From assembly GCA_038450185.1 (NCBI GenBank), contig GCA_038450185.1_4765.1: a stretch of DNA of 64,000 bases; one strand, 5' to 3'. The position numbers and the translations under genes are program-made. Shown here one piece after another: positions 6,240-59,299 of this stretch. The notes beneath the pieces were generated by a model. That model searched no databases. It was not told the DNA's origin and was given only the letters and a program-made list of their open reading frames with translations. The stretch is from a phage. Positions within the stretch are counted from its first letter, which is position 1. Each line of letters starts with the position of its first letter.

Positions 6240-6268
6240 ATTATAGGGGATCACCGATCCCCTGTCAA
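6240..6268 (-). promoter_or_regulatory. early promoter cassette (TTGACA-17-TATAAT), palindromic spacer
   Basis: About 45 bp identical to the cassette at 111-155. Confidence 0.6.
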
Positions 6269-7377: not shown

Positions 7378-7406
7378 AGTATAGGGGATCGGTGATCCCC
7401 TGTCAA
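7378..7406 (-). promoter_or_regulatory. early promoter cassette (TTGACA-17-TATACT), palindromic spacer
   Basis: Spacer GGGGATCACCGATCCCC on minus strand. Confidence 0.55.
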
Positions 7407-7419
7407 CAACTTTTTTGAA

Positions 7420-7896
7420 TTATTTTTCTTTATGCTCGCGCTCATACTTTTCGAAATAAAATTCTACTGGCTGGTCGTGGATTGACAGTAAGCCAAAGCG
7501 TTTAGCCGCTCGCAATCCCATATTGCGCTGAATGTACTTCTGGAAGTTCTCGCGTATACACTTACGCCAGTATTCTAAGCCCATACAGCTTTTATAAAGA
7601 TTGCATTGCACACATGCCGGATTCATGTTATCAAGTATATCATGCTCCGGTTTATGCATTCCTACAACCTTATACTTCCACGATCCATCATCATTACGGG
7701 CAATTCGTCCATTTTCATCATAGACTACCTTTGAGCGTCGCAATACTGGTTTGATGTGGTCTGCGTGCCAGCGATCCCCTAGTTCCTCGCCACAATAGGC
7801 ACAACGTCCACCATATTTCATTTTCAGGATCTGGCGTTGCTCTTTCTTTGACAATTTTTTAGGTTTAGGGGCTTTCGCCCCTTCATTATCACACAT
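7420..7896 (-). CDS. HNH endonuclease domain protein
   Basis: ORF track; CAYCGEEL...HADHIKP...CVQCNLYKS zinc-binding HNH signature; overlaps ligase gene by a few nt. Confidence 0.55.
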   Translation of the reverse strand: MCDNEGAKAPKPKKLSKKEQRQILKMKYGGRCAYCGEELGDRWHADHIKPVLRRSKVVYDENGRIARNDDGSWKYKVVGMHKPEHDILDNMNPACVQCNLYKSCMGLEYWRKCIRENFQKYIQRNMGLRAAKRFGLLSIHDQPVEFYFEKYEREHKEK

Positions 7897-9382
7897 CGAA
7901 TACCTCTTTTACTGTATTTGCAGTGGTCTTGTCGTAGCGAATACGTTTGATGATCGGGAGAAATAAAGAGAACTCCGGTTCATCTTCTTTACGTGATTTG
8001 CTGCGGATATACCCGTTGCATGTCATCTCAATGACTTTTCCAATCAGGTTATGACGGTCAGCCCATAACATTTCTCGGTCAAGTTCATTTCTACGATCGA
8101 ACGGAATCACACGTTCAATACCATCATCTTTTTCGGTTGTAGTGTCGGTCAATCCCGATCCGGTGTTGGTCATCATTCGTCCGCACGCACTACGGACAGT
8201 AAAACCGCCTACCTTATTAGGATCTTTACTATGCGGATATACATCAACAATTTCCGCGTCGAAGTCAATCACTTCTTTAAATTTAACCTGATCTTTACTG
8301 CGACGATCTTCAAATACACCATGCAGATTTTTAAGGATAATACCTTCTAATCCCATGTTTACATATCGATGATATACTTCGCGAGCTTCATCGATATTGT
8401 TAACTACAGTATTTTCGATTATCTGCACACGAGGATCGTTAAGTTCTTCAACAATCTGTTTTAGTTCTTCGAATCGATCTTTATATTGCTTCGTTGCTTT
8501 CTCGTTTCCGTAATACACATCACGGTTGATAACATCCCAGACAGTGTAAACAATACATTGGGCTTCTTCTTTTGGAATAGTTCCTTTCAGTGATTTGTTG
8601 AGGATACCATTTCCGGTCTGACGATCTGCAACAACGGATTCTTTTACTGCTTCCGCTACTGGCGTTAATGGCATTTCCTCTTCTTCAAATATCCATGACA
8701 GAGTACCATCATAAACGCTTTCAACGAAGTTCTGCGCTGGTGTTTGCGAAAGGGTAGGCATATATACCAATTCGCCATCTAGAACAATTCCACGGCCTCG
8801 TAGACGCTCTAAAACAGCAAACAAATCATCCAGCCCCTGATAGGTATTACCTGAACGGGTATATATTGCTAGTGTTTCCCCGTCAATATCAGCCATACCA
8901 CGAGCGCCATCACTTTTAAGTTGTGCATATGCCGGATATTTGATATTAGCAATAGCCTTATCAGAATATGACGATGCAAGGTGGCATGGTTGCTGTGGGA
9001 TCAGTTTCTTCCATACCTTGTTTGCAGTGGTAGCGGAACAACCGCATTCCAGATCACGATTCAGGACCATCATTGCAACTTTAGCATCATCTTCTGACAA
9101 GCAAGTCAGAGTATCGGTAACTAGTTGTAATGCAGCATTACCAGTTACTTGACGCGTGGCAAGTTTATTTTTAAAGACCTGTAATGCACCGGATAAAGAC
9201 AATACAGACGAATAACGCGATGGTTTATCGTATTTCTTTACGCCAAACGTAACCTGTTTGCAATATGCCAGATAAAAGCATTCTTTCAGCGTTTCATTGC
9301 TTGCAGATTCTTTCAGGATCTTTTCTTTCAGCGATGTTTTGTCTGTCGCTGCAAGCTGATTAATGATATTAAGAATTGACAT
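7889..9382 (-). CDS. 30: ATP-dependent DNA ligase (T4 gp30-like)
   Basis: ORF track 7889..9388, ATG at 9382 with GAGGTG SD; strong similarity to my recollection of T4 ligase (DLECG, AYAQLKSDGAR, GNGILNKSLKG, GLEGIILKN). Confidence 0.9.
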   Translation of the reverse strand: MSILNIINQLAATDKTSLKEKILKESASNETLKECFYLAYCKQVTFGVKKYDKPSRYSSVLSLSGALQVFKNKLATRQVTGNAALQLVTDTLTCLSEDDAKVAMMVLNRDLECGCSATTANKVWKKLIPQQPCHLASSYSDKAIANIKYPAYAQLKSDGARGMADIDGETLAIYTRSGNTYQGLDDLFAVLERLRGRGIVLDGELVYMPTLSQTPAQNFVESVYDGTLSWIFEEEEMPLTPVAEAVKESVVADRQTGNGILNKSLKGTIPKEEAQCIVYTVWDVINRDVYYGNEKATKQYKDRFEELKQIVEELNDPRVQIIENTVVNNIDEAREVYHRYVNMGLEGIILKNLHGVFEDRRSKDQVKFKEVIDFDAEIVDVYPHSKDPNKVGGFTVRSACGRMMTNTGSGLTDTTTEKDDGIERVIPFDRRNELDREMLWADRHNLIGKVIEMTCNGYIRSKSRKEDEPEFSLFLPIIKRIRYDKTTANTVKEVFDV

Positions 9383-9848
9383 TTTCACCTCGTTTTGTTA
9401 AACGTTCACGAATATCATTGAGGATACTACAAAATTCCGATTCGGTCAATATGGTCTTTAACGGATCAGTTCCACCTATACTATGACGTAATTTCTTATT
9501 TCCTGTAGCAAGTAATGCTTTACAAAATTCTGGGTTATTCCGTGCCATCGTAACAAATGCCAGATGTACCAGTCTGTAATAATGCTCACTCATTCGATGA
9601 ATCTGGCGACCCTGAAAATATAACATGTGATTCTCAATCTTTTCAGTTCTTCCGGTTCTTTTTGCTTTGCCACCGTGCATCAAAAAGATTTCTCTTTGTC
9701 TCTGAGGGTTCTTAAATCTTAGCCCCTGTAAAAATCCTTCTGTGCTGTTAATATCGCAACCAAATAGACGGAATGGTCTTTTATTGAAATTACTCAATTC
9801 ACCCGATGGATAAGGTCCACCCGCATAGATATCAATTTCAGAAGTCAT
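9369..9848 (-). CDS. putative NADAR / YbiA-like (DUF1768) protein
   Basis: ORF track; by-eye resemblance to YbiA-type pattern (ELSNFNKRPF, SEHYY, ALLATGNKKL, ILNDIRERL); not verified by search. Confidence 0.35.
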   Translation of the reverse strand: MTSEIDIYAGGPYPSGELSNFNKRPFRLFGCDINSTEGFLQGLRFKNPQRQREIFLMHGGKAKRTGRTEKIENHMLYFQGRQIHRMSEHYYRLVHLAFVTMARNNPEFCKALLATGNKKLRHSIGGTDPLKTILTESEFCSILNDIRERLTKRGENVNS

Positions 9849-15421: not shown

Positions 15422-15459
15422 TTGATTCTCCTTAAAGTGTATTTCGTTTCGATGGGGGT

Positions 15460-15488
15460 ATATTACTACCCCCGTTTCATGCTGTCAA
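15460..15488 (-). promoter_or_regulatory. early promoter cassette (TTGACA-17-TAATAT) with palindrome across -10
   Basis: GGGGGTATATTACTACCCCC palindrome. Confidence 0.45.
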
Positions 15489-15707: not shown

Positions 15708-15740
15708 TTTGATTCTCCTTTGTTTCGTTTCGATGGGGGT

Positions 15741-15769
15741 ATATTACTACCCCCGTTATTCAGTGTCAA
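15741..15769 (-). promoter_or_regulatory. early promoter cassette (TTGACA-17-TAATAT) with palindrome across -10
   Basis: Identical core to cassette at 15460. Confidence 0.45.
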
Positions 15770-18137: not shown

Positions 18138-18166
18138 ATTATAGCGGGGATTTCTCCCCGCGTCAA
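18138..18166 (-). promoter_or_regulatory. early promoter cassette (TTGACG-17-TATAAT), palindromic spacer
   Basis: Spacer GCGGGGAGAAATCCCCGC. Confidence 0.5.
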
Positions 18167-18174
18167 CACTTATT

Positions 18175-20418
18175 TTACAGCTTGCAAGATGAGCACTCGC
18201 TAGCGTCTTCCGTACCATCTGCACCGTCGCGAACGTTCGCATAATACAGGGTTTTCAGACCGTAATATTGAGCAAACAACATATCATCTAACACATCAGC
18301 AATATCGACTTTACCAGTCTTATAAGTGCTTGGATCATAGGATGTATTGGAACTAATCGCCTGATCTACAAACTTCTGCATGATCGCTGCCAGTGTCAGA
18401 TAGGGCTTGTTACCTTTCTTGATCAGTGTCCAAAGCAGGTCAATAACATCAGCATTATTCTCTACGTTCGGAATAACCTGATTAAATTGCCCTTCTTTCG
18501 ATCCTTTAACCGATACAATCCCGCGAGGCGGTTCAATACCGTTTGTGCTGTTAGATACCTGAGAAGACGACTCACAAGGCATCAGAGCCGAAAGCGTACT
18601 ATTACGAATGCCATATTTTTTCAGGTCTTCGCGCAGTTCTTCCCAATCCATCTCATACACAGGATCAACCAGTTCATCTACTGTCTTTTTGTACCAGTCG
18701 ATAGGCAGTTCACCGCGTCCATAACGTGTTTCGTGCATCAGTTCGCAAGCACCCTTCTCTTTAGCCAGTTGCACACTAGCCTTAATCAGAGCATATTGCA
18801 AGCGTTCAAACGTTTTATGCGTAAACTCGTTAGCGTCTTCATATGTGAAGAAATTATCCGCTAGATATGACGCAAAGTTAGTAACACCAACACCCAGAGA
18901 GCGACGTTTTTTGGCTGTCAGAGCTTGTTCTACAGGATAATCCTGATAATCTAACAGGTTGTCAAGTGCACGCACCATAACCATAGCAATGCGTTCTACT
19001 TCTTCCATGTTTTCGATATCGAAATTACCTAAAACATATGCTGCCAAAGTACATAGGCTGATCTCTGAATCATCACGCCCCATCGGTTTAGTAGGCAGAG
19101 CAATTTCACAACACAGGTTAGATTGTTTAATTGGTGCTACATTACGAATAAACGCCCCGTGATTGTTCATGTTGTCTGTGAATGTTGGGTAGATTCGACC
19201 AGTGTTAAAACGTTCAATTGCCACCGCTAAAAACAGGTCTTCGGCTTTAACACGAGTTTTACGAACACTCGGATCTTTTTCCAGTTTTTCGTAAAGCTGG
19301 CGGAAACCTTCCTCATCTCGGAAGTACAGATCCCACAACAAGCCACCTGCAACATCTGGACTAAACAGAGTAATGTAATCCCGTTTAAGGAATCGCTCTA
19401 CCATCAGGTTATTAATCTGTACGCCGTAGTCAAGATGGCGAATGCGGTTATCTTCCACGCCCTTATTGTTCTTTAACACAATCAGACTTTCAAACTCTAA
19501 ATGCCACATTGGGTAATAGAGAGTCGCCGCCCCGCCACGAATACCGCCTTGTGAGCATGACTTAACGGCAGTCTGAAAATGTTTCCAGAATGGGATAACG
19601 CCAGTATGACGAACTTCACCATGCCCGATCTTAGATCCTTCCGCGCGAATCATGCCAGCGTTGATACCGATACCAGCACGCTTGCTAATATACTTGATGA
19701 TTGCATTTGCTGTTTCGTTGATGCCCTGCAATGAGTCATCACTTTCAATCACCACACACGAACTAAATTGTCGTGTTGGAGTACGCACACCCGCCATAAT
19801 CGGAGTAGGCAGAGAGATTTGCTTATTCGCAACAGCATTATAAAAATCAATCACATGTTCAAGTCGATTTTCTGTCTCTTCTTGATGCAAACACATACCA
19901 ATCAGCATATACGCAAATTGCGGTGTTTCGATGATTTTCTTAGTGCTGCGATCCTGAACAAGATATTTCTCTTTTAACTGCATCGCACCAGCATAGGTCA
20001 TTTTAAAATCAAGTTTATGGTCGATGAATTTCTCCAGATATTCCACTTCTTCACGGGAATATTTTTGCAGAATTTCGCGATCATATTTTCCGGTTGCAAT
20101 ATTACGCTCAATATGGCTATAAAAATCAATAGGTTGGAATTGACCGTATACTGATTTACGAAGCGCGAACATTGCAAGGTTACTTGCTACATATTGATAA
20201 TCAGGCGTTTCTACAGTAATGTTATCTGCGGCGACCTTAATCAATACTTTCTGGATATCATTGGTAGACATACCTTCTGTCAGAAGTGGTTCAACCATAT
20301 CAAACAATTCATATGGATCAACGTTATGACCTTCGGCTGCCGCTTCCAGAATTTTCATTACTTTTTCTTTTTCAAACGGAACAGTCAGACCGGAAGACTT
20401 AACAACATTTTTAATCAT
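18175..20418 (-). CDS. nrdA: ribonucleotide reductase large subunit
   Basis: ORF track; 747 aa with ATP-cone N-terminus and C-terminal CSSCKL-type tail typical of class Ia NrdA. Confidence 0.9.
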   Translation of the reverse strand: MIKNVVKSSGLTVPFEKEKVMKILEAAAEGHNVDPYELFDMVEPLLTEGMSTNDIQKVLIKVAADNITVETPDYQYVASNLAMFALRKSVYGQFQPIDFYSHIERNIATGKYDREILQKYSREEVEYLEKFIDHKLDFKMTYAGAMQLKEKYLVQDRSTKKIIETPQFAYMLIGMCLHQEETENRLEHVIDFYNAVANKQISLPTPIMAGVRTPTRQFSSCVVIESDDSLQGINETANAIIKYISKRAGIGINAGMIRAEGSKIGHGEVRHTGVIPFWKHFQTAVKSCSQGGIRGGAATLYYPMWHLEFESLIVLKNNKGVEDNRIRHLDYGVQINNLMVERFLKRDYITLFSPDVAGGLLWDLYFRDEEGFRQLYEKLEKDPSVRKTRVKAEDLFLAVAIERFNTGRIYPTFTDNMNNHGAFIRNVAPIKQSNLCCEIALPTKPMGRDDSEISLCTLAAYVLGNFDIENMEEVERIAMVMVRALDNLLDYQDYPVEQALTAKKRRSLGVGVTNFASYLADNFFTYEDANEFTHKTFERLQYALIKASVQLAKEKGACELMHETRYGRGELPIDWYKKTVDELVDPVYEMDWEELREDLKKYGIRNSTLSALMPCESSSQVSNSTNGIEPPRGIVSVKGSKEGQFNQVIPNVENNADVIDLLWTLIKKGNKPYLTLAAIMQKFVDQAISSNTSYDPSTYKTGKVDIADVLDDMLFAQYYGLKTLYYANVRDGADGTEDASECSSCKL

Positions 20419-20466
20419 ATTACCTCACTTCATATTTTAGCAGGAACAAGTTTTATCCTCCATATT

Positions 20467-20482
20467 GGGGGCTTTCGCCCCC
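20467..20482 (-). other. GGGGGCGAAAGCCCCC hairpin directly after td stop
   Basis: Reads as GAAA-loop hairpin on the mRNA-sense (minus) strand. Confidence 0.4.
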
Positions 20483-20487
20483 TTTGT

Positions 20488-21723
20488 TTATACTGCCATT
20501 TGAGCGGTGATCGCTGGATGGCTTTGATAGTTGTGAATTTTAAAGTCTTTCGGAGTCTTTGTCAATACCTCATCTAAAGACTTAAATTCCGGCAACTCAA
20601 TTGTTGGTTTATCAAACGGAACACGGCTTAACTGTTCCATAACTTGATCAAAATGGTTTTTGTAAATGTGGCAATCCCCACACTGATAAACCAGTTCGCC
20701 AACTTCTAACCCGCAAATCTTCGCGATGATATGCGTTAACAGTGCATAGCTCGCTACGTTGAACGGATTCCCTAAAAAGAGATCATTCGAACGCATGAAA
20801 AATAAACAACTCAATTTGTTGTCGTTGGAAACATAAAACTGTACCATCGGATGACATACACCTAACACAGCATTATGCGTTTCCTGTACGTTCCATGAAT
20901 CAATGATAATACGACGACTATACGGATCATTCTTGATCATGTCAATAACTTTTTGTAACTGGTCTTCCCAAATCTTCGGGCGATAGACATATTCTTCATC
21001 GTCTTTAGTGCTTGATGTGTCTACGTCCATACTAGCAAAGATCGTGGTATCTGGTGCTAAAATATCCCCACCCAGATAATCACTATCAAGCAGATAACCG
21101 AAATAACCATCATCTACCCATTCCTGGAATCCCCACAAGCAATATGCATCATTAACAAAATTAGATTGAGTCTTCCAGTGATCGGCTACTAAGAATTGAT
21201 TATATTCAGAATCAAACTCTTCATAACGCATACCACGCCAGATAGCACATAAACGGTCTTCTGTTTCATTGGTTGGCGTAAAGTCTTCTACCCACGGGTG
21301 CTTAAATGTATGTGCATATTTGCTCTTAACTCGCTTAATTTTGATTTCACCGTGTGGATGAATCGGTTTGCGTCGCCACGCCATACCATACATATTGCCG
21401 ACATTATAACCATTGAATCGCAAGGGATTCTTTTCTTTCATATCAAGACAGTTGCCGCGCCAAATATCAAAGGCTTCCTCGTCAAACTTGCCGCGTGTAA
21501 TTTCCTGTAAGCGACGGCGGTCAAGTGATCCCTCCATAAACCATAGCAATTCGCCAATTACAGAGGCTGTAGCCATCTTTTTAGTGGTCAGTAAGGGGAA
21601 ACCCTTGCTTAAGTCAATTCGCATTTCTGCACCGAATTTAGAGAGCGTACCTACCCCCGTGCGGTCTTCACGAGGCCAGCCATTATCAAGAACATCACGC
21701 AACAGTTTCAAATATTCTTTCAT
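20488..21723 (-). CDS. td: thymidylate synthase with large internal insertion
   Basis: ORF track; N-terminal DRTGVGT and C-terminal SRRIIIDSWN, LGVCHPMVQFYV, NPFNVASYAL motifs flank an extra ~110-130 aa segment; continuous ORF. Confidence 0.8.
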   Translation of the reverse strand: MKEYLKLLRDVLDNGWPREDRTGVGTLSKFGAEMRIDLSKGFPLLTTKKMATASVIGELLWFMEGSLDRRRLQEITRGKFDEEAFDIWRGNCLDMKEKNPLRFNGYNVGNMYGMAWRRKPIHPHGEIKIKRVKSKYAHTFKHPWVEDFTPTNETEDRLCAIWRGMRYEEFDSEYNQFLVADHWKTQSNFVNDAYCLWGFQEWVDDGYFGYLLDSDYLGGDILAPDTTIFASMDVDTSSTKDDEEYVYRPKIWEDQLQKVIDMIKNDPYSRRIIIDSWNVQETHNAVLGVCHPMVQFYVSNDNKLSCLFFMRSNDLFLGNPFNVASYALLTHIIAKICGLEVGELVYQCGDCHIYKNHFDQVMEQLSRVPFDKPTIELPEFKSLDEVLTKTPKDFKIHNYQSHPAITAQMAV

Positions 21724-28769: not shown

Positions 28770-28777
28770 TATAAATA
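28770..28777 (+). promoter_or_regulatory. T4-type late promoter box TATAAATA upstream of gene 34
   Basis: TATAAATA about 28 nt before the ATG at 28806, followed by AAGGAG RBS. Confidence 0.65.
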
Positions 28778-28805: not shown

Positions 28806-31800
28806 ATGGCAGATTTTTCTCAACATTTCAAGGCCACATTTGGCTTTGACGCTGGTAATGAAAAGGTCGTCAATGTAGCATTGGCTGATAAGAATGTCAA
28901 CACCGATGCGGTCAACGTTGAATTTTTCAATTACCATAATGGTATTACTCAGTATGACACAACTCGCGGTTATGATCAATACGGAACTACAATCTATCAA
29001 AACCGTCCGTATTATGCAAAAGAAGATATCACAAAACCAGCAGGTGACTTTGACCCGACTAAATGGCAAGCACTGCGCACGGACCCACGTTGGGATTATG
29101 TTGCAGCAACTTCCGGCGATACTCCTTTAAAGTCCGGTGATTATATCGCAGCGGACTGTCAGTTTGCAAACTTGACATTCTCAATGCCTACTAATCCGGC
29201 AGAGGGCGACACTATAACAGTAAAAGATATCGGTGGCAAGTGCGGTGTTAATGAGTTATCGTTCCTTGCGGCTGGTCATGAGTTCTATCATAACGGTGTG
29301 GTAAACAACCGCAAATGGTATTGTACTACCCCTTATGCAATGAACTACTTCATTTTTGCTCGCAATCGCTGGCACGTTTACCAGACGGGAACAGAGCCGC
29401 GCGGGGTATATGCACAACCATCTATCGACCCGATTCAGATGCAAAACGGTGATCAGGTATTCCGCCGTAGTTCTTTGGGTAACATTGTTTTGATGCTTCC
29501 TAAGTTTGCTAATAACGGTGATATAATCCAGACTACCGATCTTGACGGATTGACTGCAACCAACCATGTTACGGTAAAAGTGCATGAAGGTGCGCAAGAA
29601 CAATCGATCGGTACTTTCGGGGTAAAAGAAATTGTTGGTAAGCGTAGCGGTCATGGTGTATTCATATTTGACAAACCGGAAAACTTATGGCGTTTGTGGG
29701 ATGGTGATCAGTCTGTTCGCTTGAATCCTATCATTAGTGATACTCGCTTATCCCCCAATAGCTATGTTGCAGTATTTGGTGATCGTGATGTTACCTTGAC
29801 TTTACCGACCAATGTCGAGCCGGGTGATCGTATTCAAGTTTCTATGCAGTATATGCACGGAAACCAGACTTGCCGAATCATTACCTCAGAAGAGGATACA
29901 AAAATCCTTATGCAGAAAAACATGGTTCAGTTTCCTAAGCGTAGCGAGTACCCATTCAATGGGGCCGATACATGGACGGGAGTGTCTGAATTGTCTTTCA
30001 ACGCTGCAAATGATTATGTACCTTATCTGGAGTTCTCTTATTCAGAAGGTGATGATGGTAAGAAATACTGGTTGGTGGCACATGCTCACCCGATTGTAGA
30101 ACGAGTAGATCCGACTCGTAAAGATCGTGTTGGTGTAATTGCACTGGCTACCCAGGATGAAACAAACAAAAACCATGAAGATAATCCTAGCGACGAAGTT
30201 GCGGTGACTCCAAAGGTTCTGGCTAATAAAACAGCCAACGAAACTCGACGCGGTATTGCTCGCATTGCAACTCAAGCGGAAACTCATCAAGATACTGGTT
30301 CCAGCTTCCTGGATGATGTTATCGTTACACCTAAAAAGTTAAATGACTGTGTTGCTACCGAAGCCCGTCGTGGTGTGATGGAAATTGCAACTCAACATGA
30401 AACCAACGAAGGTTTAGACGATACCCGCGCAATCACTCCTAAGAAGTTAGAAGAGCGTCGAGCGTCAGAGGATCTTGCTGGTATCGCTGAAATTGTTCAG
30501 GTAGGCGGTAATGCTGCCGCTCTAAGGGGTGAAGCTGGTACAGGGATCTATAACATCAATGACCATGCTAAAATTGTTACACCGCAAAACATCAACGAAG
30601 TTAAGGCGACCGAAACTTCCCGTGGTGTTGGGTATCTGGCGACGGATGAGGAAGTTCAAGGGGCTACTGAATCAACCCCGCAAGATGCATTGCTGATCAC
30701 TACTCGCACGTTAACCAAGCGCACTGCTACCGAATCCCGTACTGGTATCGCTGAAATTGCAACTCAAGAAGAAACAAACTTAGGCCAAAGTGATGACCAT
30801 ATCATCACACCTAAAAAACTGCATACTCGCCGCGCAACGGAAACTTTACATGGTTTAGCAGAAATTGCAACTCAAGAAGAGTTTGACGCAGGTCTTGACG
30901 ATGCTCGCATTTCTACCCCATTGAAGATTAAAACCTTCTTTGAGAATGCACAGCGTTTGAAAGTAGACCCGACTCAGGGGCTTAACCTTACTGGTGATTT
31001 GTGGCAAGGTATCATGATCAGCGGTCTGGACGCAACCGAAGACACAAAAGGTGTCGCTAAAGTTGCTACTACTCAGCTTACGGATGCTGGTCAAGATGAT
31101 ACTACAATCATCACGCCTAAAAAGCTGCAAGGCAAAAAAGCCACCGAAGGTAAAGAAGGTATTATCCGCGTTGGTACTCAAGCCGAAACCGTGGCTGGTA
31201 CACTGGCTAATGTAGCAATTTCTCCGAAGAACTTCAAATATGTTGTTCAGACAGAGGATACATGGAAAGCAACCGAAGCGCGTCGTGGATTCTTGAAAGT
31301 TGCTACTCAGGAAAACTGTTTTGTTGGTGATAATCTGCAAGGTTCTACTCAAGAACTAGGAAACTACCAGCATGACGGAATTGCTGTTACCCCGAAAGGA
31401 TTAAACTACGCACTTGCTAATTTCTTACCTAAGATGGCAACTGCTCAGAATAGTTTGAAATTGGGTAACGTAGAGGCCGCTAAATGGGCGCGTAGAGACA
31501 TTGACCAGACCATAGAGAGCAATTACACGTTTAATAAAAACGTTAACGTGAAGGGCGATTTAGAGTGCTTAAAATCAGGTTCCTTTGAAACTCTATCTGT
31601 GACTAAGAACTCGACCGATGTTCCGAGTAATGGTCATCTGGTGTTGGGTGAGCGTGGAGTTGACGGTCACACCGGAATTACTCTGCATGGCACAACCGCA
31701 TCGGAAGGCATGAAAAACTCTTGGTCTATTATCGTTGGTGGCACTGGAACAGCGCAAGTTGTTGATAGTGATGCTATCGCTTTCGGTAAAATCAATGATG

Positions 31801-32546
31801 GTGGAGTCGTTGAGCATTACGCCTTTGCTATGAAACACAATGGCGACGCGACAGCATATAGAGACTTTATTGCAGGTCGTAACCTGTATGCGAAACAAGG
31901 CGGTTTATACATTGTTGACCAGTCTAATCCGGCAATGACTCGTTCCCCAGATGGTATGCTGAATATCGGTCACGGTGGAAGTGTTAACATCAAGGCAGGT
32001 CATCAAACGTTAACTACAGAGATCGCCGGACAGAAATATCAGATCGTACACGCAGGAAACGCTGACGAAGTTCTTAACCGTCAGTTTGTTAAGAATGCTG
32101 GCGATACAATGGTCGGTAAGCTGACTATGGATAATGCGCCTATTGTTTCTGTTAAGCATGAAGCTAGCGCGGCAACCGCTCCGGCAATCGGTAACATCGG
32201 TTTCTGGAATATGCGAGTTACTACCCAGAACATCAAAGAAACTTATCCAGAGAAGAAAAACGGTACTCTGATGCAATGGGGTACTGACGCGGACGGGCTT
32301 ACCCAGCTTTGGTCCCCCGATGGTACTCATAAACATTATATCCGTTCCGGTACTGGTGGTCAATGGACCGCATGGGGTGAAATTTACACCAAACAGAATA
32401 AGCCTACCGCTCAGGAAATCGGGGCAGTAGTTGCAGAAGGTGGTTTAATGAACTCTATGACGGTTCGTGATTGGATCAAAGTTGGTAATGTTAAAATCAT
32501 CGCCAATAATCTGACTCGTACCGTAGACTTTATCTGGGAAGACTAA
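28806..32546 (+). CDS. 34: long tail fibre proximal subunit
   Basis: ORF track; 1246 aa; repeated ATETRRGIARIATQ-type motifs and C-terminus as in recalled T4 gp34. Confidence 0.9.
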   Translation: MADFSQHFKATFGFDAGNEKVVNVALADKNVNTDAVNVEFFNYHNGITQYDTTRGYDQYGTTIYQNRPYYAKEDITKPAGDFDPTKWQALRTDPRWDYVAATSGDTPLKSGDYIAADCQFANLTFSMPTNPAEGDTITVKDIGGKCGVNELSFLAAGHEFYHNGVVNNRKWYCTTPYAMNYFIFARNRWHVYQTGTEPRGVYAQPSIDPIQMQNGDQVFRRSSLGNIVLMLPKFANNGDIIQTTDLDGLTATNHVTVKVHEGAQEQSIGTFGVKEIVGKRSGHGVFIFDKPENLWRLWDGDQSVRLNPIISDTRLSPNSYVAVFGDRDVTLTLPTNVEPGDRIQVSMQYMHGNQTCRIITSEEDTKILMQKNMVQFPKRSEYPFNGADTWTGVSELSFNAANDYVPYLEFSYSEGDDGKKYWLVAHAHPIVERVDPTRKDRVGVIALATQDETNKNHEDNPSDEVAVTPKVLANKTANETRRGIARIATQAETHQDTGSSFLDDVIVTPKKLNDCVATEARRGVMEIATQHETNEGLDDTRAITPKKLEERRASEDLAGIAEIVQVGGNAAALRGEAGTGIYNINDHAKIVTPQNINEVKATETSRGVGYLATDEEVQGATESTPQDALLITTRTLTKRTATESRTGIAEIATQEETNLGQSDDHIITPKKLHTRRATETLHGLAEIATQEEFDAGLDDARISTPLKIKTFFENAQRLKVDPTQGLNLTGDLWQGIMISGLDATEDTKGVAKVATTQLTDAGQDDTTIITPKKLQGKKATEGKEGIIRVGTQAETVAGTLANVAISPKNFKYVVQTEDTWKATEARRGFLKVATQENCFVGDNLQGSTQELGNYQHDGIAVTPKGLNYALANFLPKMATAQNSLKLGNVEAAKWARRDIDQTIESNYTFNKNVNVKGDLECLKSGSFETLSVTKNSTDVPSNGHLVLGERGVDGHTGITLHGTTASEGMKNSWSIIVGGTGTAQVVDSDAIAFGKINDGGVVEHYAFAMKHNGDATAYRDFIAGRNLYAKQGGLYIVDQSNPAMTRSPDGMLNIGHGGSVNIKAGHQTLTTEIAGQKYQIVHAGNADEVLNRQFVKNAGDTMVGKLTMDNAPIVSVKHEASAATAPAIGNIGFWNMRVTTQNIKETYPEKKNGTLMQWGTDADGLTQLWSPDGTHKHYIRSGTGGQWTAWGEIYTKQNKPTAQEIGAVVAEGGLMNSMTVRDWIKVGNVKIIANNLTRTVDFIWED

Positions 32547-32551
32547 TTAAA

Positions 32552-32567
32552 GGGGGCGAAAGCCCCC
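32552..32567 (+). other. GGGGGCGAAAGCCCCC hairpin (GAAA tetraloop) between genes 34 and 35
   Basis: Perfect 6-bp GC stem with GAAA loop, no U-run; same element occurs at 20467-20482 and 7867-7882 on the minus strand. Confidence 0.45.
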
Positions 32568-32579
32568 TATGGGGTTATT

Positions 32580-33719
32580 ATGACACAAGAGATAGAATTA
32601 CGCAACACTGGAATTACGTTTGCGCATTTCGACGAAGACTCTGCGACATTTACAAGCATTTCAGAAAACAACTCTGTAATGTATAAGCTGGAAGTGCGCG
32701 GATCTAATGCAGATTCTACCAAACCAGCAAGGATTAGATTTAATGGAGTGGAGATCGTTGGTACTGGCTATGAAAATGGCCTAAATTTTAAAGTTCTTAC
32801 TCCAACTGGACAACTACACGAAGAAAAGGTATTCTATGGTCGCGGTGCTGTTTTGGCAATGCGTGATTATCTTTCTTTGCTGAAAGGTGACTATATCATT
32901 GCGATGGCAACTCATGGAGAATTGTTTGCAGATCCGATAAGTGATGTTGTATTTTCTAAGATGGGATCTGTATCATTCCCGAATCACATTTTGTTACAGC
33001 AAATGCCTCGTGTATCCTATGCAGCAATTTATTCTACTAAAATGGGTAAAATTGTGTGCGAAGGGATGCAAGCAACTAACGGGGAAGGACAAAATTCATC
33101 TATACAAATTGAGAAAGTCTATGATACTATAGATGATCTTGCTATAACAGGAACACCACAACGATTTTTAGATTATCCGGTTGAGTATGTTAGCGAAGAT
33201 GCCGAACATTTCGAGCTAATACAATGGCCTCATGATGAGACCAGCGCCCCACTTGAGGATTTTAACATAAAGGCAGGTGACAAACTATCAATATCCTTTG
33301 AATTGTTCCGTGATAGTGCCGCAGCCGCAGCCAACGTAACAGCGCGTTTCTATCACAACTACTTCACCGATGGACAATATAAAACTGGTGTTCGATACAA
33401 TGCCAGCAAAAAAGACCAGTGGGAAAAGTTTGAAGCAGTCTATACCGTACCGGAAGGTGTCGATAGTGTAGTAACTGGTTGTATCAGATATCCAACCAAC
33501 TCAAATGAAGGTATTGTTAAAATTAGAAACATACTAATAACGCCGATCAGTGGAGTCGTCAAAACTACTGGTCCGACTTCATTTGGTGTTAATGGTGTTA
33601 GAACAACTCATATTCAGGATAACGGTGATTTTACTAACCCTGTAATGAGTCTTCTTAAACTTCCTAGAGACAATAAACATATCACATCCAACAACTTTAA
33701 AGAGTTCGATGTTGATTAA
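32580..33719 (+). CDS. 35: long tail fibre hinge/connector protein
   Basis: ORF track; 379 aa directly after gene 34. Confidence 0.7.
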   Translation: MTQEIELRNTGITFAHFDEDSATFTSISENNSVMYKLEVRGSNADSTKPARIRFNGVEIVGTGYENGLNFKVLTPTGQLHEEKVFYGRGAVLAMRDYLSLLKGDYIIAMATHGELFADPISDVVFSKMGSVSFPNHILLQQMPRVSYAAIYSTKMGKIVCEGMQATNGEGQNSSIQIEKVYDTIDDLAITGTPQRFLDYPVEYVSEDAEHFELIQWPHDETSAPLEDFNIKAGDKLSISFELFRDSAAAAANVTARFYHNYFTDGQYKTGVRYNASKKDQWEKFEAVYTVPEGVDSVVTGCIRYPTNSNEGIVKIRNILITPISGVVKTTGPTSFGVNGVRTTHIQDNGDFTNPVMSLLKLPRDNKHITSNNFKEFDVD

Positions 33720-33730
33720 CATTTTTAACA

Positions 33731-33760
33731 AGCCGATCCTCGTGGTCGGCTTTATTTTTA
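33731..33760 (+). terminator. intrinsic terminator after gene 35
   Basis: Hairpin AGCCGATC...GGTCGGCT followed by TTTATTTTTA. Confidence 0.55.
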
Positions 33761-33879: not shown

Positions 33880-33887
33880 TATAAATA
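33880..33887 (+). promoter_or_regulatory. T4-type late promoter box TATAAATA upstream of gene 36
   Basis: TATAAATA 33 nt before ATG 33921. Confidence 0.65.
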
Positions 33888-33920: not shown

Positions 33921-35411
33921 ATGGCAGATTTGAAATATGGATCTACTGTAGGTGGATCTCCCATTTGGACGCAAGGAAACTTGACGATCCAGCCAGCGGG
34001 GGATCAGCTTTTCTACAAAGGTCATAAAATCTATACCGCTTTTGATAGACCTTCGGCTACCGATTTTGATGCTGTTAGTGCATCTGAAGGTGGCACATTT
34101 CAAAAGCAAGTTCATTTCGAGGAAGGTTTAAGCGTAGGTAGCGCATCGGCTGGAGAAACCAAAAAGAATGGTATCTTTAAAGGTCAGAGTGACGCTGCTA
34201 ATTTTGACGGCGTAAGCTGGGGTTTGCATTCATGGAAGTCAATCGGCTTTGTTAATGCCCGTGATGGCGTTATTATGGCGTATATTGACACCACAACGGG
34301 CGAATTTAAGTCTAAAGGGACTATCGAAGGGACAACCATTAAAGACACAGGTCAACGCGTCTATAGCCCTGTTAATAAACCAACGAATAATGATTTAGAT
34401 TTGGTGTCTCGTCGCGGTGATACTCTCACAGGAACATATAATTTAAACACTGTCACTGTTAAACTATCGGTTGATTCGAAATTAATTGCAAGGGAACGTG
34501 ATTTAATTAATTTTGATGCGACTAAGATCTATTATGGTAACGTTCTTGATACGTTGGTCTTCCGAAGTAAAGATGAGCCTACCATTTTTGTTAATGGCAT
34601 AGAAGGTCGTTTTTATCACACCAACAATAAACCAACTAAAGCCGATGTTGGACTAGGCAATGTCACCAATGATGCACAGGTTAAACGTGCTGGTGATATT
34701 ATGGAAGGTAACTTGCAAGCGCCTAGAATGTTGGCGACAAACGATCCTGCTGGTCCTAATGAATTGGTTCGTTTGAGCTACTTTGAGAGAAAATCAATGG
34801 TAGCAAATCCAACCATCATAGGAAACGTTGATTGGAACACTCTTATTAATCGCGGTATCTATCGTGTGGAAAATGCTGGGTCGGGTACTAATAAACCGTC
34901 TGATAGCTATTATAACGGCGTTTTGATGGTATATCGCCCAGAAGATGCGGTCGGTACTCGTCGAATTGTTCAGGTGTATTATCCTGAATCTATTGACCAT
35001 CCGATGTGCTGGCGTTCGTGTTCTAATGAATCATGGACTGCATGGAACTATGTAGATCACCGTAAATTGGCTGATATTCGCTATGTTAACGTCACTGGCG
35101 ATACCATGACAGGACCGTTAACTGTTCCTGCTGCAAATGGCGTTAGAACGGCTAGAGGTGCATATAATGGTGATAACTACTATGCTGGGTTAAATAGTGC
35201 TGATGGCACTGCTATGATTCACCGTATCAGCGATATTAAAGCCACCGAAAAATTGGGTATTACTCACGATTCTAAAGCTGTTTTCATTAAAGCGCGTGGA
35301 AATACTCAAGACACAGACCGCTATGAACTTTACCACGAAGGCCATAAACCGACACCCGCAGAGGTTGGCGCGGTTCCACTTAATGCGGTGATTGATTTTG
35401 GTACTTTCTAA
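33921..35411 (+). CDS. 36: long tail fibre distal-half small subunit (gp36-like, enlarged)
   Basis: ORF track; position between 35 and 37; 496 aa, much longer than T4 gp36 as I recall it. Confidence 0.65.
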   Translation: MADLKYGSTVGGSPIWTQGNLTIQPAGDQLFYKGHKIYTAFDRPSATDFDAVSASEGGTFQKQVHFEEGLSVGSASAGETKKNGIFKGQSDAANFDGVSWGLHSWKSIGFVNARDGVIMAYIDTTTGEFKSKGTIEGTTIKDTGQRVYSPVNKPTNNDLDLVSRRGDTLTGTYNLNTVTVKLSVDSKLIARERDLINFDATKIYYGNVLDTLVFRSKDEPTIFVNGIEGRFYHTNNKPTKADVGLGNVTNDAQVKRAGDIMEGNLQAPRMLATNDPAGPNELVRLSYFERKSMVANPTIIGNVDWNTLINRGIYRVENAGSGTNKPSDSYYNGVLMVYRPEDAVGTRRIVQVYYPESIDHPMCWRSCSNESWTAWNYVDHRKLADIRYVNVTGDTMTGPLTVPAANGVRTARGAYNGDNYYAGLNSADGTAMIHRISDIKATEKLGITHDSKAVFIKARGNTQDTDRYELYHEGHKPTPAEVGAVPLNAVIDFGTF

Positions 35412-42235: not shown

Positions 42236-42264
42236 ATTATAGGGGATCGCAGATCCCCTGTCAA
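42236..42264 (-). promoter_or_regulatory. early promoter cassette (TTGACA-17-TATAAT), palindromic spacer
   Basis: Spacer GGGGATCTGCGATCCCC. Confidence 0.55.
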
Positions 42265-44467: not shown

Positions 44468-45832
44468 TCAACCCTTCTTAAGTTCTTTAAGATCTTTCTT
44501 ATATTCCTTCATTGCGGTCGTCTTTGTCCAATACTCATATTCACTATGATGTTTATCGGCATCTTTGACCAGTCGATCATACTCTTCTTGAGTAACGCTA
44601 TACAATGGCATAGAAACTAGCTTATCGGCGTATGGACGCAGTTTTTCATGTCCATTGATGGATTGCATTACCTCGGCCTTTTTCTTTCCCTGTAGCTCGA
44701 TTTCGCCCTTAATTACAAGGTCGATAAATTCAGCTTTAGCCATTGCATAATTGTATGCTTCCAGTGTTTCCGCTTGCATCAATTCAATGCGTTTATCTAC
44801 ATAGCCTAATCGGATTTCGACGAATCGACGGATCAGATCGCTCGCTTTTTCGAATACTTCTACTAAACCACGTTCGTTAACTACTACGATATTCTGGGCT
44901 ACTAACTGCGTTAGTTTAAAATCCTTCATGATTTGCTCATGTCGAGCGGATTCATCTTCGCTTTTGAAATAATCACGTTTCAGTGTTACTTCAAATCTGA
45001 ATCCGTCCTTAGAGCAACGGTCATTATACGATACAATCAGATCTTTTTCTTCCAGTGCATCCAGTACCGCTACATATTCTTCACGGTCGAACTTATAAGG
45101 AACTTCTGATATTGTCAGTTTAGTCTTGCCGTTTAGTTCATATGTACCCTCAAGAATCACACCATCGCGATCATCTCGCGGGATAACTTTACCCGTGAAT
45201 TTCGGGAATTGAACACTAGGTTCTTTATCCAGTTTTCCGGCAAGTGCTAGCTCTGTGCATTCAATAAGGCTTTCCAGTGAATGCGGTAAAATGTCAGTTT
45301 TATACCCTGTAGCAATACCACTAATACCGTTAGCCAATACCATTGGAACAACTGGCAAGTAGAACGCTGGCGGGATGTGTTCCAGATCTTCGTGCTTAGG
45401 TGCGCAATTCATATCTTTATAGATTTTAAAGAAGTTTTCATGAACACGAGCAAAGATATAACGTGCCGCACCTGCTTTCTGGACTAAACGCGATCCGAAG
45501 TTACCTTGACCGTCAAGCAGTGGAGTATTATTGCTCCATGTATTCGCCATGAGTGATCCGGCTTCTACGGCATTAGTTTCCCCGTGGTGATAACCCAACT
45601 CAGCAACACCAGATCCAATATCTGCCATCTTACGGAATTTCTTACGGTCGCCTTTACTCTTTTGAAGTGCGCACTCCATAACAAAGCGTTGCACTGGTTT
45701 AAGCCCATCCACTAATTGAGGAATCCCGCGTTCCTCGGCAGAATAGATCGCATATTCCTTAGCTTCATTATGTACAATGCTTTCAAGGCTGCGGTAAGTA
45801 AATGTGTTTACAATTTGACTAATTTTATCCAT
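44468..45832 (-). CDS. 52: DNA topoisomerase II medium subunit
   Basis: ORF track 44468..45847; ATG 45832 with GAGGTG SD; similarity to recalled T4 gp52 (GLKPVQRF, LGYHHGE, PLLDGQGNFGSR, ARYIFAR). Confidence 0.85.
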   Translation of the reverse strand: MDKISQIVNTFTYRSLESIVHNEAKEYAIYSAEERGIPQLVDGLKPVQRFVMECALQKSKGDRKKFRKMADIGSGVAELGYHHGETNAVEAGSLMANTWSNNTPLLDGQGNFGSRLVQKAGAARYIFARVHENFFKIYKDMNCAPKHEDLEHIPPAFYLPVVPMVLANGISGIATGYKTDILPHSLESLIECTELALAGKLDKEPSVQFPKFTGKVIPRDDRDGVILEGTYELNGKTKLTISEVPYKFDREEYVAVLDALEEKDLIVSYNDRCSKDGFRFEVTLKRDYFKSEDESARHEQIMKDFKLTQLVAQNIVVVNERGLVEVFEKASDLIRRFVEIRLGYVDKRIELMQAETLEAYNYAMAKAEFIDLVIKGEIELQGKKKAEVMQSINGHEKLRPYADKLVSMPLYSVTQEEYDRLVKDADKHHSEYEYWTKTTAMKEYKKDLKELKKG

Positions 45833-58270: not shown

Positions 58271-59299
58271 TTAAAATTTACAATATTTCATAAACCGCAT
58301 TTTAGCCATCAGACCTTGTACGGTGTTCTCTTTGATATATTCCATGATCTGGTCGCGTGTAGCGCCCTCGTCCTGAATCATGGCGTTAACGTCTTTAGAA
58401 TGCCACGGGCAGCGATCCCACAAAACAATCTTTTCCCCTGCATTGATAAACTTTTCCAGTCGGTGCATTGTATCGGCAGACCGTGGTTCCGCATCAAGTA
58501 CAAACACTCGCTGATCAGGGAAAGGAATTTCATCTAATCCCAAAGTACCGCCAGTAATTGCACACCCGTTATCAATAAACAATGAATCGATCGGACCTTC
58601 TAAGAAATACACAGGTTTACTCGGATCGGCGCGTTCAAGACCATAGACCTTACTCGCTAACTCATGAGTTTTAATCGTCATATATTTGGTCTTTCCGTAA
58701 TCCTTTCTCAATGCTCGCCCCTGAATGGATTCTATCTTGTTCTCGCGGTTAAAGATAGGAATCACTAAACGCGGTTCAGGTTGTGGATTCTTGAAAGTAT
58801 CAGCCTTAATGTGATTTGCTACCTTTTGCCATTCTCTCGTGAAATACAGAAGATCCCATTTATCGTGAGGAATACAGCGATCACTGACATACTTTATTAT
58901 AGGATGATTAGCCGGAAGAGTATCTAATCTCTCGCAGAAAGGCAATGTTTGCACTTTCTTAATCTCCGGCTTTTCTACCTTTTTCAGTGGCTTGAACGTG
59001 GTGTTCTTGTGGTCGCCTTGTTCCTTCCGTCTCTCCATAAGCCATTCCCTGAATAGGTCCGGCTTATACTGTTTGAGAAATTCACCTAACGGCTGATTGT
59101 AGTTACAGTTGAAACAACCACAACGCAAACTATCTTTATAGGTATAGATACGGAATCGCGCTTGAGTATGATTTTTCTTTGAGTCACCGCAGATCGGACA
59201 ACTACAGACCAGCGTAAATGAGCTAGTATGCAACCGTTTAAAATTTCGTTCGCCGTATATGGCTTTTTCCGCTATTTCATAATCTGCGTAGTAAATCAT
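58271..59299 (-). CDS. 61: DNA primase
   Basis: ORF track; 342 aa; N-terminal zinc ribbon CSCPICGD...CFNC plus Toprim-like core. Confidence 0.8.
   Translation of the reverse strand: MIYYADYEIAEKAIYGERNFKRLHTSSFTLVCSCPICGDSKKNHTQARFRIYTYKDSLRCGCFNCNYNQPLGEFLKQYKPDLFREWLMERRKEQGDHKNTTFKPLKKVEKPEIKKVQTLPFCERLDTLPANHPIIKYVSDRCIPHDKWDLLYFTREWQKVANHIKADTFKNPQPEPRLVIPIFNRENKIESIQGRALRKDYGKTKYMTIKTHELASKVYGLERADPSKPVYFLEGPIDSLFIDNGCAITGGTLGLDEIPFPDQRVFVLDAEPRSADTMHRLEKFINAGEKIVLWDRCPWHSKDVNAMIQDEGATRDQIMEYIKENTVQGLMAKMRFMKYCKF

Follow-up and report, generated by a model that had tools for sequence, protein, structure and literature searches.

What three nearly identical hairpins do at gene borders is the question raised by this locus. 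The window, by which we mean the whole 64,000-nt stretch of DNA that was analysed, carries G-C-rich stems capped by GAAA between genes 34 and 35, after td, and at the start of an HNH endonuclease gene. The sequence-only reading had suggested that these are RNA stability or processing elements, or translational-coupling structures, rather than classical terminators. In a megablast search, the window was assigned to an RB49-like T4-type phage of the genus Krischvirus, with 95–99% identity to RB49, phi1, JSE, GEC-3S, and about 55 others, and the gene names given earlier (34, 35, td, nrdA, ligase, and HNH) agreed with homology and with RB49-type annotation. Genomes of the RB49 type are dense with G-run/C-run stem-loops. 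In RB49 and phi1, the PeSL cassette couples a strong sigma-70-like promoter with a stem-loop that follows the stop codon of the preceding gene (Arbiol et al. 2010, PMC2839356), and the form of the stem-loops has been given as 'GN-loop-CN' (Comeau et al. 2014, PMC4122927). The three hairpins are members of this described population, which the sequence-only reading overlooked. The genes that flank them are as follows.

28806–32546, plus strand: gene 34, long tail fibre proximal subunit, upstream cistron of hairpin 1 (annotation of RB49, TB34, and others)
32580–33719, plus strand: gene 35, tail fibre hinge connector, downstream cistron of hairpin 1
20488–21723, minus strand: td, thymidylate synthase, upstream cistron of hairpin 2 (RB49 annotation)
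18175–20418, minus strand: nrdA, downstream cistron of hairpin 2 (RB49 annotation)
7889–9388, minus strand: gene 30, DNA ligase, upstream cistron of hairpin 3 (annotations)
7420–7896, minus strand: HNH endonuclease ORF, corresponding to RB49 ORF212c, with an annotated ATG that overlaps the ligase stop codon

Structure and position of the hairpins

The hairpins themselves, with their approximate predicted stabilities, are listed below.

32551–32568, plus strand: hairpin 1, A-GGGGGC-GAAA-GCCCCC-T, a C(GAAA)G tetraloop on a stem of 7 bp, at the gene 34/gene 35 junction, about −14.9 kcal/mol
20467–20482, minus strand: hairpin 2, GGGGGC-GAAA-GCCCCC, at the td/nrdA junction, about −13.3 kcal/mol
7867–7882, minus strand: hairpin 3, AGGGGC-GAAA-GCCCCT, with a variant outer pair, after the ligase stop codon, about −11.6 kcal/mol

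The exact 16-mer GGGGGCGAAAGCCCCC occurs at positions 32552–32567 of the plus strand and 20467–20482 of the minus strand. The third copy, AGGGGCGAAAGCCCCT at 7867–7882 of the minus strand, differs from it by two mismatches that replace the outer G-C pair with A-U. The earlier description of three copies of one hairpin therefore holds for the two exact copies and for the 14-nt core GGGGCGAAAGCCCC, which is identical in all three, whereas the third copy as a whole is a variant. Three matches were obtained in 0 of 100 dinucleotide-preserving shuffles (expected number, 0.01); the hairpins are real and non-random. A sequence search of the whole RB49 genome (164 kb, assembled from four sequence segments) found no copy beyond these three, and the Rfam covariance models gave no match at the gathering score on either strand of the window. 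These stabilities are those of the isolated RNA hairpins, and in folding predictions the hairpin dominated the local fold at all three sites. The fold z-scores were modest (−2.0 to −2.7 in contexts of 61–66 nt), which counts against a protective function. The stems, of 6–7 bp and −11.6 to −14.9 kcal/mol, are G-C-rich, like those of intrinsic terminators, and each is capped by a GNRA-type C(GAAA)G loop with a Watson–Crick closing pair. As the sequence-only reading stated, the GAAA lies on the sense strand in all three copies.

In terms of position, each stem starts 5–7 nt past the stop codon of the upstream gene.

Copy 1, gene 34 stop codon to stem: TAA-ttaaa-GGGGGC
Copy 2, td stop codon to stem: TAA-acaaa-GGGGGC
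Copy 3, ligase stop codon to stem: TGA-taatga-AGGGGC

The locations reported earlier were all confirmed. Copy 1 lies between genes 34 and 35, 5 nt past the gene 34 stop codon (4 nt if the extra A-U pair is included), and ends 12–13 nt before the gene 35 ATG. Copy 2 directly follows the td stop codon with a gap of 5 nt, and the nrdA ATG lies 48 nt beyond its end. Copy 3 is inside the 5′ end of the HNH gene, at nucleotides +15 to +30 of the annotated ORF; it begins 6 nt past the ligase stop codon and 11 nt beyond the HNH ATG, and spans codons 6–10 together with the final base of codon 5. Copies 1, 2, and 3 thus lie at different distances from the next start codon (12, 48, and −15 nt, respectively). 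The feature common to all three is nearness to the upstream stop codon, a point that the sequence-only reading missed.

The position of copy 3 depends on where the HNH protein begins. The annotated ATG overlaps the ligase TGA (ATGTGTGA) and has a Shine–Dalgarno sequence, GAGG, 7 nt upstream; the ribosome-binding site is annotated in Makalu_003. The Pfam HNH match starts at residue 32 of the ORF, and in distant homologues (about 36% identity) the protein starts at a point equivalent to residues 14–17. A TTG at codon 15, at position 7854, would yield a canonical N-terminus and lacks a Shine–Dalgarno sequence. Whichever start is used, copy 3 lies outside the HNH core, in an N-terminal extension that is not conserved, and fits best as the 3′ hairpin of the ligase cistron. 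If the annotated start is used, copy 3 is translated and the hairpin would be opened, which counts against a protective role at this site. The 'terminator' annotated in Makalu_003 under the ligase/HNH match is not copy 3 but a PeSL hairpin that follows the HNH gene.

Transcription signals around the hairpins

The earlier statement that the hairpins have no U-run, and so are not classical terminators, holds on the sense strand. When a U-tract was defined as about five or more U in the 8 nt directly 3′ of the stem, none of the three sense tails (TATGGGGTT, AATATGGAG, and AAACCTAAA) contained one, and a pattern scan gave no sense-strand call. On the antisense strand, the stem is followed by T-rich tails at copy 2 (TTTGTTTATA) and copy 1 (TTTAATTAG), which had been missed; they are weak, yet the pattern scan called terminators there, and only on that strand. 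Copy 3 received no terminator call on either strand. The GenBank records that annotate a terminator at the 34/35 site conflict, with a plus-strand call in TB34 and a minus-strand call in Makalu_003, so that 'terminator' annotation at these sites is unreliable. The following signals frame the hairpins.

28770–28777, plus strand: late promoter motif TATAAATA, serving the 34–35 unit, 36 nt 5′ of the gene 34 ATG
33730–33752, plus strand: canonical terminator after gene 35, AAGCCGATCC-TCGT-GGTCGGCTT followed by TATTTTTTAT, annotated as a terminator in TB34
20537–20565, minus strand: near-consensus sigma-70-like promoter TTGACA-17-TAAAAT within the 3′-terminal part of td, about 55 nt 5′ of hairpin 2, with both hexamers conserved in relatives

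The next TATAAATA on the plus strand is at 33880, 41 nt 5′ of the gene 36 ATG. None occurs between genes 34 and 35, and there is no promoter motif between hairpin 1 and the gene 35 ATG. On these signals, the predicted transcription unit is promoter–34–hairpin 1–35–terminator, in which gene 35 depends on read-through of hairpin 1 because no promoter lies between the two genes. The T-run terminator after gene 35 means that the phage uses a U-tract where the unit does end, and hairpin 1 differs from it in this respect. Neither copy 1 nor copy 2 marks the end of a transcription unit: the unit of copy 1 ends at 33730–33752, and the promoter-like site near copy 2 is upstream of the hairpin, not downstream, so transcripts starting there must also pass hairpin 2. 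The scan found no sense-strand promoter-like site beside copies 1 and 3. When the sequence before each hairpin was read for recoding signals, no −1 frameshift slippery heptamer, read-through context, gene-60-type bypass, or SECIS-like arrangement was present. A RegB site was also considered; GGAG lies 3′ of the hairpin at copy 2 only and is not common to the three.

Conservation and similar hairpins elsewhere

The hairpins were present in every Krischvirus sequence aligned (six to eight per site), with only single-base indels at the stem edges. Hairpin 2 was kept in eight aligned sequences with edge indels only, and hairpin 3 was invariant in six aligned genomes. Among the GenBank Krischvirus records, 59 of 59 matched the 34/35 region at ≥94.7% identity, and the ligase/HNH region was matched in all 59. 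The aligned sequences, 95–99% identical at the three sites, are too similar to yield compensatory stem changes and contained none; the structure is backed by conservation and thermodynamics only. More distant comparisons came from two contigs, L213 and L211, both covering the 34/35 site. Searches of IMG/VR starting from td, gp35, and HNH, and a single metagenome scan starting from gp35, yielded no other useful intermediate relative. Among GenBank phages, gp35 identity leaves a gap between ≥90% and <30%. In L213, whose gp35 is 88% identical, the hairpin is unchanged, and the 33-nt spacer contains one difference, compared with 15/150 and 11/150 in the flanking coding DNA. In L211 (gp35 86% identical), the GGGGGC/GCCCCC stem is intact, the loop has changed from GAAA to TTT, the flanks are altered, and on the sense strand TTTT comes directly after the stem. 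What stays constant in these sequences is the stem and not the loop, and the L211 element looks more like a weak sense-strand terminator. In T4, no hairpin was found at the 34/35 junction, where the genes are 8 nt apart, or at the td/nrdA.2 junction, where they are 20 nt apart, indicating that the elements are not conserved across T4-type genera and are dispensable for the T4-type plan.

A census of all hairpins of −9 kcal/mol or lower between co-directional genes in the whole RB49 genome placed the three copies among their neighbours. Tetraloops of the GNRA or UNCG type faced the sense strand in 15 cases and the antisense strand in none, and this was true for genes on both genome strands. The 15-to-0 bias points to a role at the RNA level; strand composition alone does not explain it, because UUCG is pyrimidine-rich and GAAA is purine-rich. 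The RB49 intergenic hairpins fell into three groups: PeSL-type hairpins that contain or are surrounded by a promoter, T-run terminators of the canonical kind, several of which are UUCG-looped, and a small residue with neither promoter nor T-run. This residue, roughly ten hairpins as judged by eye, includes the three GAAA copies and hairpins after gene 18 and upstream of rIIB. The UUCG-capped hairpins of RB49 have a T-run after the stem and resemble canonical terminators.

Among the matches listed in IMG/VR, the same 14-mer was found in >120 unrelated contigs. Of the 109 listed loci with enough flank, 84 had the end of a long ORF ≤40 nt upstream when read on the GAAA strand and 23 when read on the other strand; of 115 distinct contexts, only 44 had a T-rich tail after the 14-mer. 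Placing a GGGGC-GAAA-GCCCC hairpin, with GAAA in the message, just past a gene is thus a common convergent phage design that often lacks a U-tract and belongs to the RNA level. The three hairpins therefore most plausibly act in RNA.

Candidate functions and known counterparts

We put at roughly 0.5 the probability that the three elements are gene-end intercistronic RNA hairpins, protective or attenuating, that favour the upstream cistron; this agrees with the earlier proposal of RNA stability or processing elements. Under this reading, each hairpin would form in the sense transcript just past the stop codon of gp34, td, or DNA ligase. Lying within polycistronic units without a U-tract, it would mostly be read through by RNA polymerase; once an endonuclease has cut downstream, PNPase and RNase II, the 3′→5′ exonucleases of the host, would be halted at the stem. 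The 34, td, and ligase messages would retain a protected 3′ end, and those of 35, nrdA, and HNH would decay faster, perhaps with a minor contribution from transcription pausing or termination. Ribosome geometry suggests that, with a spacing of 5–7 nt, a ribosome holding the stop codon in its A site would have the stem at the entrance of its mRNA channel; being outside the terminating ribosome, it would never have to be melted by translation of the upstream gene. The elements have the structure expected of protective 3′ stem-loops, in that they are stable, lack a U-tract, and lie within polycistronic units at the point where the upstream cistron ends. That exonucleases are blocked, that the cistrons differ in stability, and that expression ratios shift is inferred from sequence, position, strand bias, conservation, and operon context. 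A literature search found no study of transcript ends, half-lives, or expression for any Krischvirus. The lack of a T4 counterpart and of compensatory changes among close relatives counts against this reading. The long tail fibre of T4 contains a gp34 trimer and a single gp35, which lowers the demand for gp35 relative to gp34, and expression of the free-standing homing endonucleases of T4-type phages is as a rule held low. A lower output of gp35 than of gp34 would fit this stoichiometry, and a low output of HNH would fit the homing-endonuclease pattern.

The main rival is that the hairpins are leaky transcription attenuators, at which pausing or partial termination on the sense strand, despite the missing U-tract, lowers the transcription of 35, nrdA, and HNH. 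We consider this possible but distinctly less probable than the preferred reading, and the two effects may coexist. Some of its support comes from other RB49 stem-loops. The three hairpins share the GN-loop-CN form given for the PeSL stem-loops of RB49 and phi1 (PMC4122927), and the PeSL211/210 stem-loop, which lies at RB49 123271–123289 and reads AGGGGATCACGTATCCCCT then ATACTACAC on the sense strand without a U-run, was reported to cut lacZ expression about as much as the rrnB T1 terminator (PMC2839356). That result means that termination, not decay protection, could be the main effect here too, although the lacZ assay cannot tell termination from RNA decay. The sense-strand TTTT in the divergent L211 and the plus-strand annotation in TB34 also favour attenuation, whereas the lack of a sense-strand U-run or scan call at any of the three copies speaks against it. 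Furthermore, gene 35 has no promoter of its own and gp35 is essential in T4, which leaves no room for strong termination at hairpin 1.

Translational control of the downstream gene, antisense termination, and roles at the DNA level are less likely than both the preferred reading and attenuation. We regard it as unlikely that the hairpins govern translation of the next gene, with HNH made only by termination–reinitiation at copy 3 and copy 1 acting from 12 nt upstream of the gene 35 ATG. The overlap of the HNH ATG with the ligase TGA, with the hairpin starting just beyond, would suit such control, as would the low expression typical of homing endonucleases, and in the predicted fold the HNH Shine–Dalgarno sequence and AUG are unpaired with the hairpin just downstream. 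On the other hand, no Shine–Dalgarno sequence or start codon is sequestered by any of the hairpins in the predicted folds, copy 2 is far from the nrdA start, and what the copies share is an upstream stop, not a distance to a downstream start. The proposal of translational-coupling structures is thus conceivable for copy 3 only and does not extend to the three as a set. Even more unlikely, in our estimate, is that the hairpins are intrinsic terminators on the antisense strand, directed against stray or convergent transcription and using the T-rich tails of copies 1 and 2. The antisense calls of the pattern scan and the minus-strand annotation in Makalu_003 are consistent with this, as are the early genes downstream of gene t, which are directed at the tail-fibre genes, and the antisense primer transcript inside gene 34 of T4, at oriG. 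However, the loop on that strand is UUUC, which is not stabilising, all 15 RB49 intergenic GNRA/UNCG tetraloops face the sense strand, and the ORF-strand bias of the 14-mer in viral contigs weighs in the same direction. Copy 3 has no T-run on either strand, and the T-runs of the other copies are short and interrupted, and are explained equally well by A-rich sequence after a TAA stop codon. Upstream of copy 2, the plus strand of the window carries no TATAAATA, and the genes called there are all on the minus strand; the scan for plus-strand sigma-70-type promoters near copy 2 covered positions 20200–20700.

We judge it very unlikely that the element works in DNA, as a d(GCGAAAGC) mini-hairpin in single-stranded intermediates of replication or recombination or as a short recombination linker, or that the palindromes are neutral products of convergence or duplication. 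The d(GCGAAAGC) sequence does form an ultra-stable DNA mini-hairpin, which is found at the priming origin of phage G4 and resists SSB and exonucleases (PMC13037366), and PeSL repeats mediate recombination and mini-circle formation in RB49 (PMC2839356). In further support, copies 1 and 2 have flanks in common, with AAA ahead of the stem and TATGG behind it. However, the loop orientation tracks the direction of transcription on both genome strands, and a role in DNA does not readily account for the placement just behind stop codons. The 14–19 nt of identity is far below the roughly 100-bp homology of PeSLs, and core genes would be lost if copies 2 and 3 recombined. To our knowledge, T4-type replication has no need for mini-hairpin or repeat signals, which also counts against a DNA-level role. 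Least probable of all is a sequence-specific operator, made up of the stem and GAAA loop and read by a phage or host RNA-binding factor, in a small post-transcriptional regulon. Such a factor would coordinately set the ratio of read-through, decay, or reinitiation at 34→35, td→nrdA, and ligase→HNH; the idea arises because the three copies are alike while the other hairpins of RB49 vary.

If the preferred reading of gene-end hairpins favouring the upstream cistron is true, they would be simple, portable devices that tune the ratio of neighbouring products within one transcript, with an excess of gp34 over gp35 as a plausible case. The stem-loop half of the PeSL cassette occurs alone beside core genes. 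Our current understanding of T4-type gene expression is unchanged by this, and a specialist would not find it surprising.

Several known systems resemble the three hairpins in part. The central 8 nt of each copy are exactly those of the d(GCGAAAGC) mini-hairpin of Hirao and colleagues (PMC13037366); that motif is known from the origins of single-stranded DNA phages and from synthetic uses, whereas the orientation seen here tracks transcription, which argues against a single-stranded DNA role. Like intrinsic terminators, the elements are G-C-rich hairpins directly after a gene, and some GenBank records call the 34/35 copy a terminator; unlike them, they have no U-tract on the transcribed strand, and gene 35 needs read-through. 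Hairpins with C(UUCG)G or GNRA tetraloops were first described in T4 mRNAs in 1988 (recounted in PMC4371310). These are also very stable and intercistronic, and both kinds occur in RB49, in every case on the sense strand. In contrast to the UUCG-capped hairpins of RB49, which have T-runs, the three GAAA-capped hairpins have none, and T4 lacks a hairpin at the homologous junctions. In E. coli, protective 3′ stem-loops without a U-tract, the nearest experimentally tested parallel to the proposed mechanism, shape the differential decay of operons such as malE–malF, and are intergenic or often within the first ~100 nt of the downstream ORF (Dar & Sorek 2018, PMC5927463). Copies 1 and 2 are likewise intergenic, and copy 3 is within the start of the HNH ORF. 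The E. coli elements differ in being sequence-diverse and host-encoded; the malE–malF element is a REP repeat with no sequence in common with the three hairpins.

The hairpins also resemble the PeSL stem-loops, which occur in the same phage group, have the GN-loop-CN form, follow an upstream stop codon, and lack a U-run. Several PeSL hairpins are also GAAA-looped on the sense strand, for example that at 18144–18161 of the window. True PeSLs of the window, such as those at 125, 2501, 6245, 7383, 18144, and 42241, have the layout TTGAC-hairpin-TATAAT (e.g., TTGACA-GGGGATCGGTGATCCCC-TATAAT). The three hairpins differ from them in two respects. The promoter of the cassette, TTGACA-N17-TATAAT at the stem-loop, is absent from copies 1 and 3, and the promoter-like site about 55 nt upstream of copy 2 does not have the PeSL layout. 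Furthermore, PeSLs vary between close relatives and cluster around ORFans in hyperplastic regions, whereas the three hairpins flank core genes and are conserved. The element is thus a promoter-less form of the RB49 GN-loop-CN stem-loop, and an ordinary member of the already described tetraloop-capped hairpins at gene ends.

Repeated hairpins, terminators and PeSL cassettes

The GAAA-loop stem-loops, designated hairpins 1 (between genes 34 and 35), 2 (between td and nrdA) and 3 (in the 5′ end of the HNH ORF), occur among other repeated or capped hairpins in the window and in the related Krischvirus genome RB49:

33730-33752, plus strand; RB49 34498-34519, 149963-149985 and 159773-159795: second repeated hairpin family, (A)AGCCGATCC-loop-GG(G)TCGGCT(T)
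RB49 45339-45360, 97820-97839, 98977-98996, 58718-58739 and 140946-140965: classical terminators, each with a C(UUCG)G cap and a long T-run
125-143, 2257-2275, 2501-2519, 6245-6263, 7383-7401, 18144-18161 and 42241-42259, all read on the minus strand: canonical promoter-early stem-loop (PeSL) cassettes
15454-15473 and 15735-15754, read on the minus strand: two copies of GGGGGTA-GTAATA-TACCCCC

Every copy of the second family is followed by a T-run, and these hairpins are canonical terminators, one of them located after gene 35. Because several further hairpin sequences likewise recur in the genome, a repeated hairpin is not in itself unusual here. The five RB49 C(UUCG)G terminators, which follow genes 38 and 32 among others, all lie outside the window or at its edge. 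They demonstrate the use of UUCG loops by the phage for true terminators, and of GAAA loops with and without T-runs alike.

At the seven canonical PeSL sites, the layout is TTGAC(A)-G-rich hairpin-TATAAT/TACAAT, such that the stem-loop itself constitutes the 17-nt promoter spacer; in the cassette at 18144-18161, moreover, the loop is GAAA (GCGGGGA-GAAA-TCCCCGC). The GGGGGTA-GTAATA-TACCCCC copies have TTGAC a few bases upstream and a -10-like sequence within the loop, and belong to the subclass of PeSLs whose hairpin extends over the -10 box.

Coding sequences adjoining hairpins 2 and 3

20488-21723, minus strand: td ORF, 411 aa
20420-20449, minus strand: mini-ORF between hairpin 2 and nrdA, with GGAGG at 20457-20461
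7852-7896, minus strand: N-terminal extension of the HNH ORF, 13-16 residues (MCDNEGAKAPKPKKL)

The mini-ORF reads TTG TTC CTG CTA AAA TAT GAA GTG AGG TAA and begins 7 nt after GGAGG; its stop is separated by 1 nt from the nrdA ATG, and the nrdA Shine-Dalgarno sequence lies inside it. It may act as a translational-coupling leader. The GGAG preceding it is also a RegB-type motif, and the spacer between its Shine-Dalgarno sequence and TTG has one A fewer in RB49 than in the window. The 266-position Pfam profile for thymidylate synthase extends over td residues 2-411, which means that the Krischvirus enzyme has a large insertion or extension; other viral td genes could be aligned with its last ~160 residues only.

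The HNH extension is missing from distant homologues. Codon 15 is TTG (7854-7852), and a start there would give the canonical N-terminus, although this codon is not preceded by a Shine-Dalgarno sequence.

The 14-mer in an unrelated contig and promoter-like sites

L073 (IMG/VR contig 3300017735_000250), 11902-11915 and 12176-12189: two copies of the 14-nt core of hairpins 1-3, in an unrelated viral contig
20537-20565, minus strand: near-consensus sigma-70-type promoter, TTGACA-17-TAAAAT (11/12), in the td 3′ end
32335-32363, minus strand: near-consensus promoter, TTGACC-17-TATAAT (11/12), antisense to the gene 34 3′ end

Both L073 copies are preceded by AAAAG and followed by a Shine-Dalgarno sequence and ATG, and one has TATAAATA, a T4-type late-promoter motif, ahead of it, suggesting that another T4-like lineage employs the same gene-end hairpin.

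The site in td, which precedes hairpin 2 by ~55 nt, probably serves nrdA as an early promoter; no promoter is annotated at this site in RB49 or GEC-3S. The site antisense to gene 34 lies ~190 nt from hairpin 1, and by our own rough estimate, chance alone would yield ~1 match of this kind per window. In T4, gene 34 contains an antisense primer transcript (oriG).
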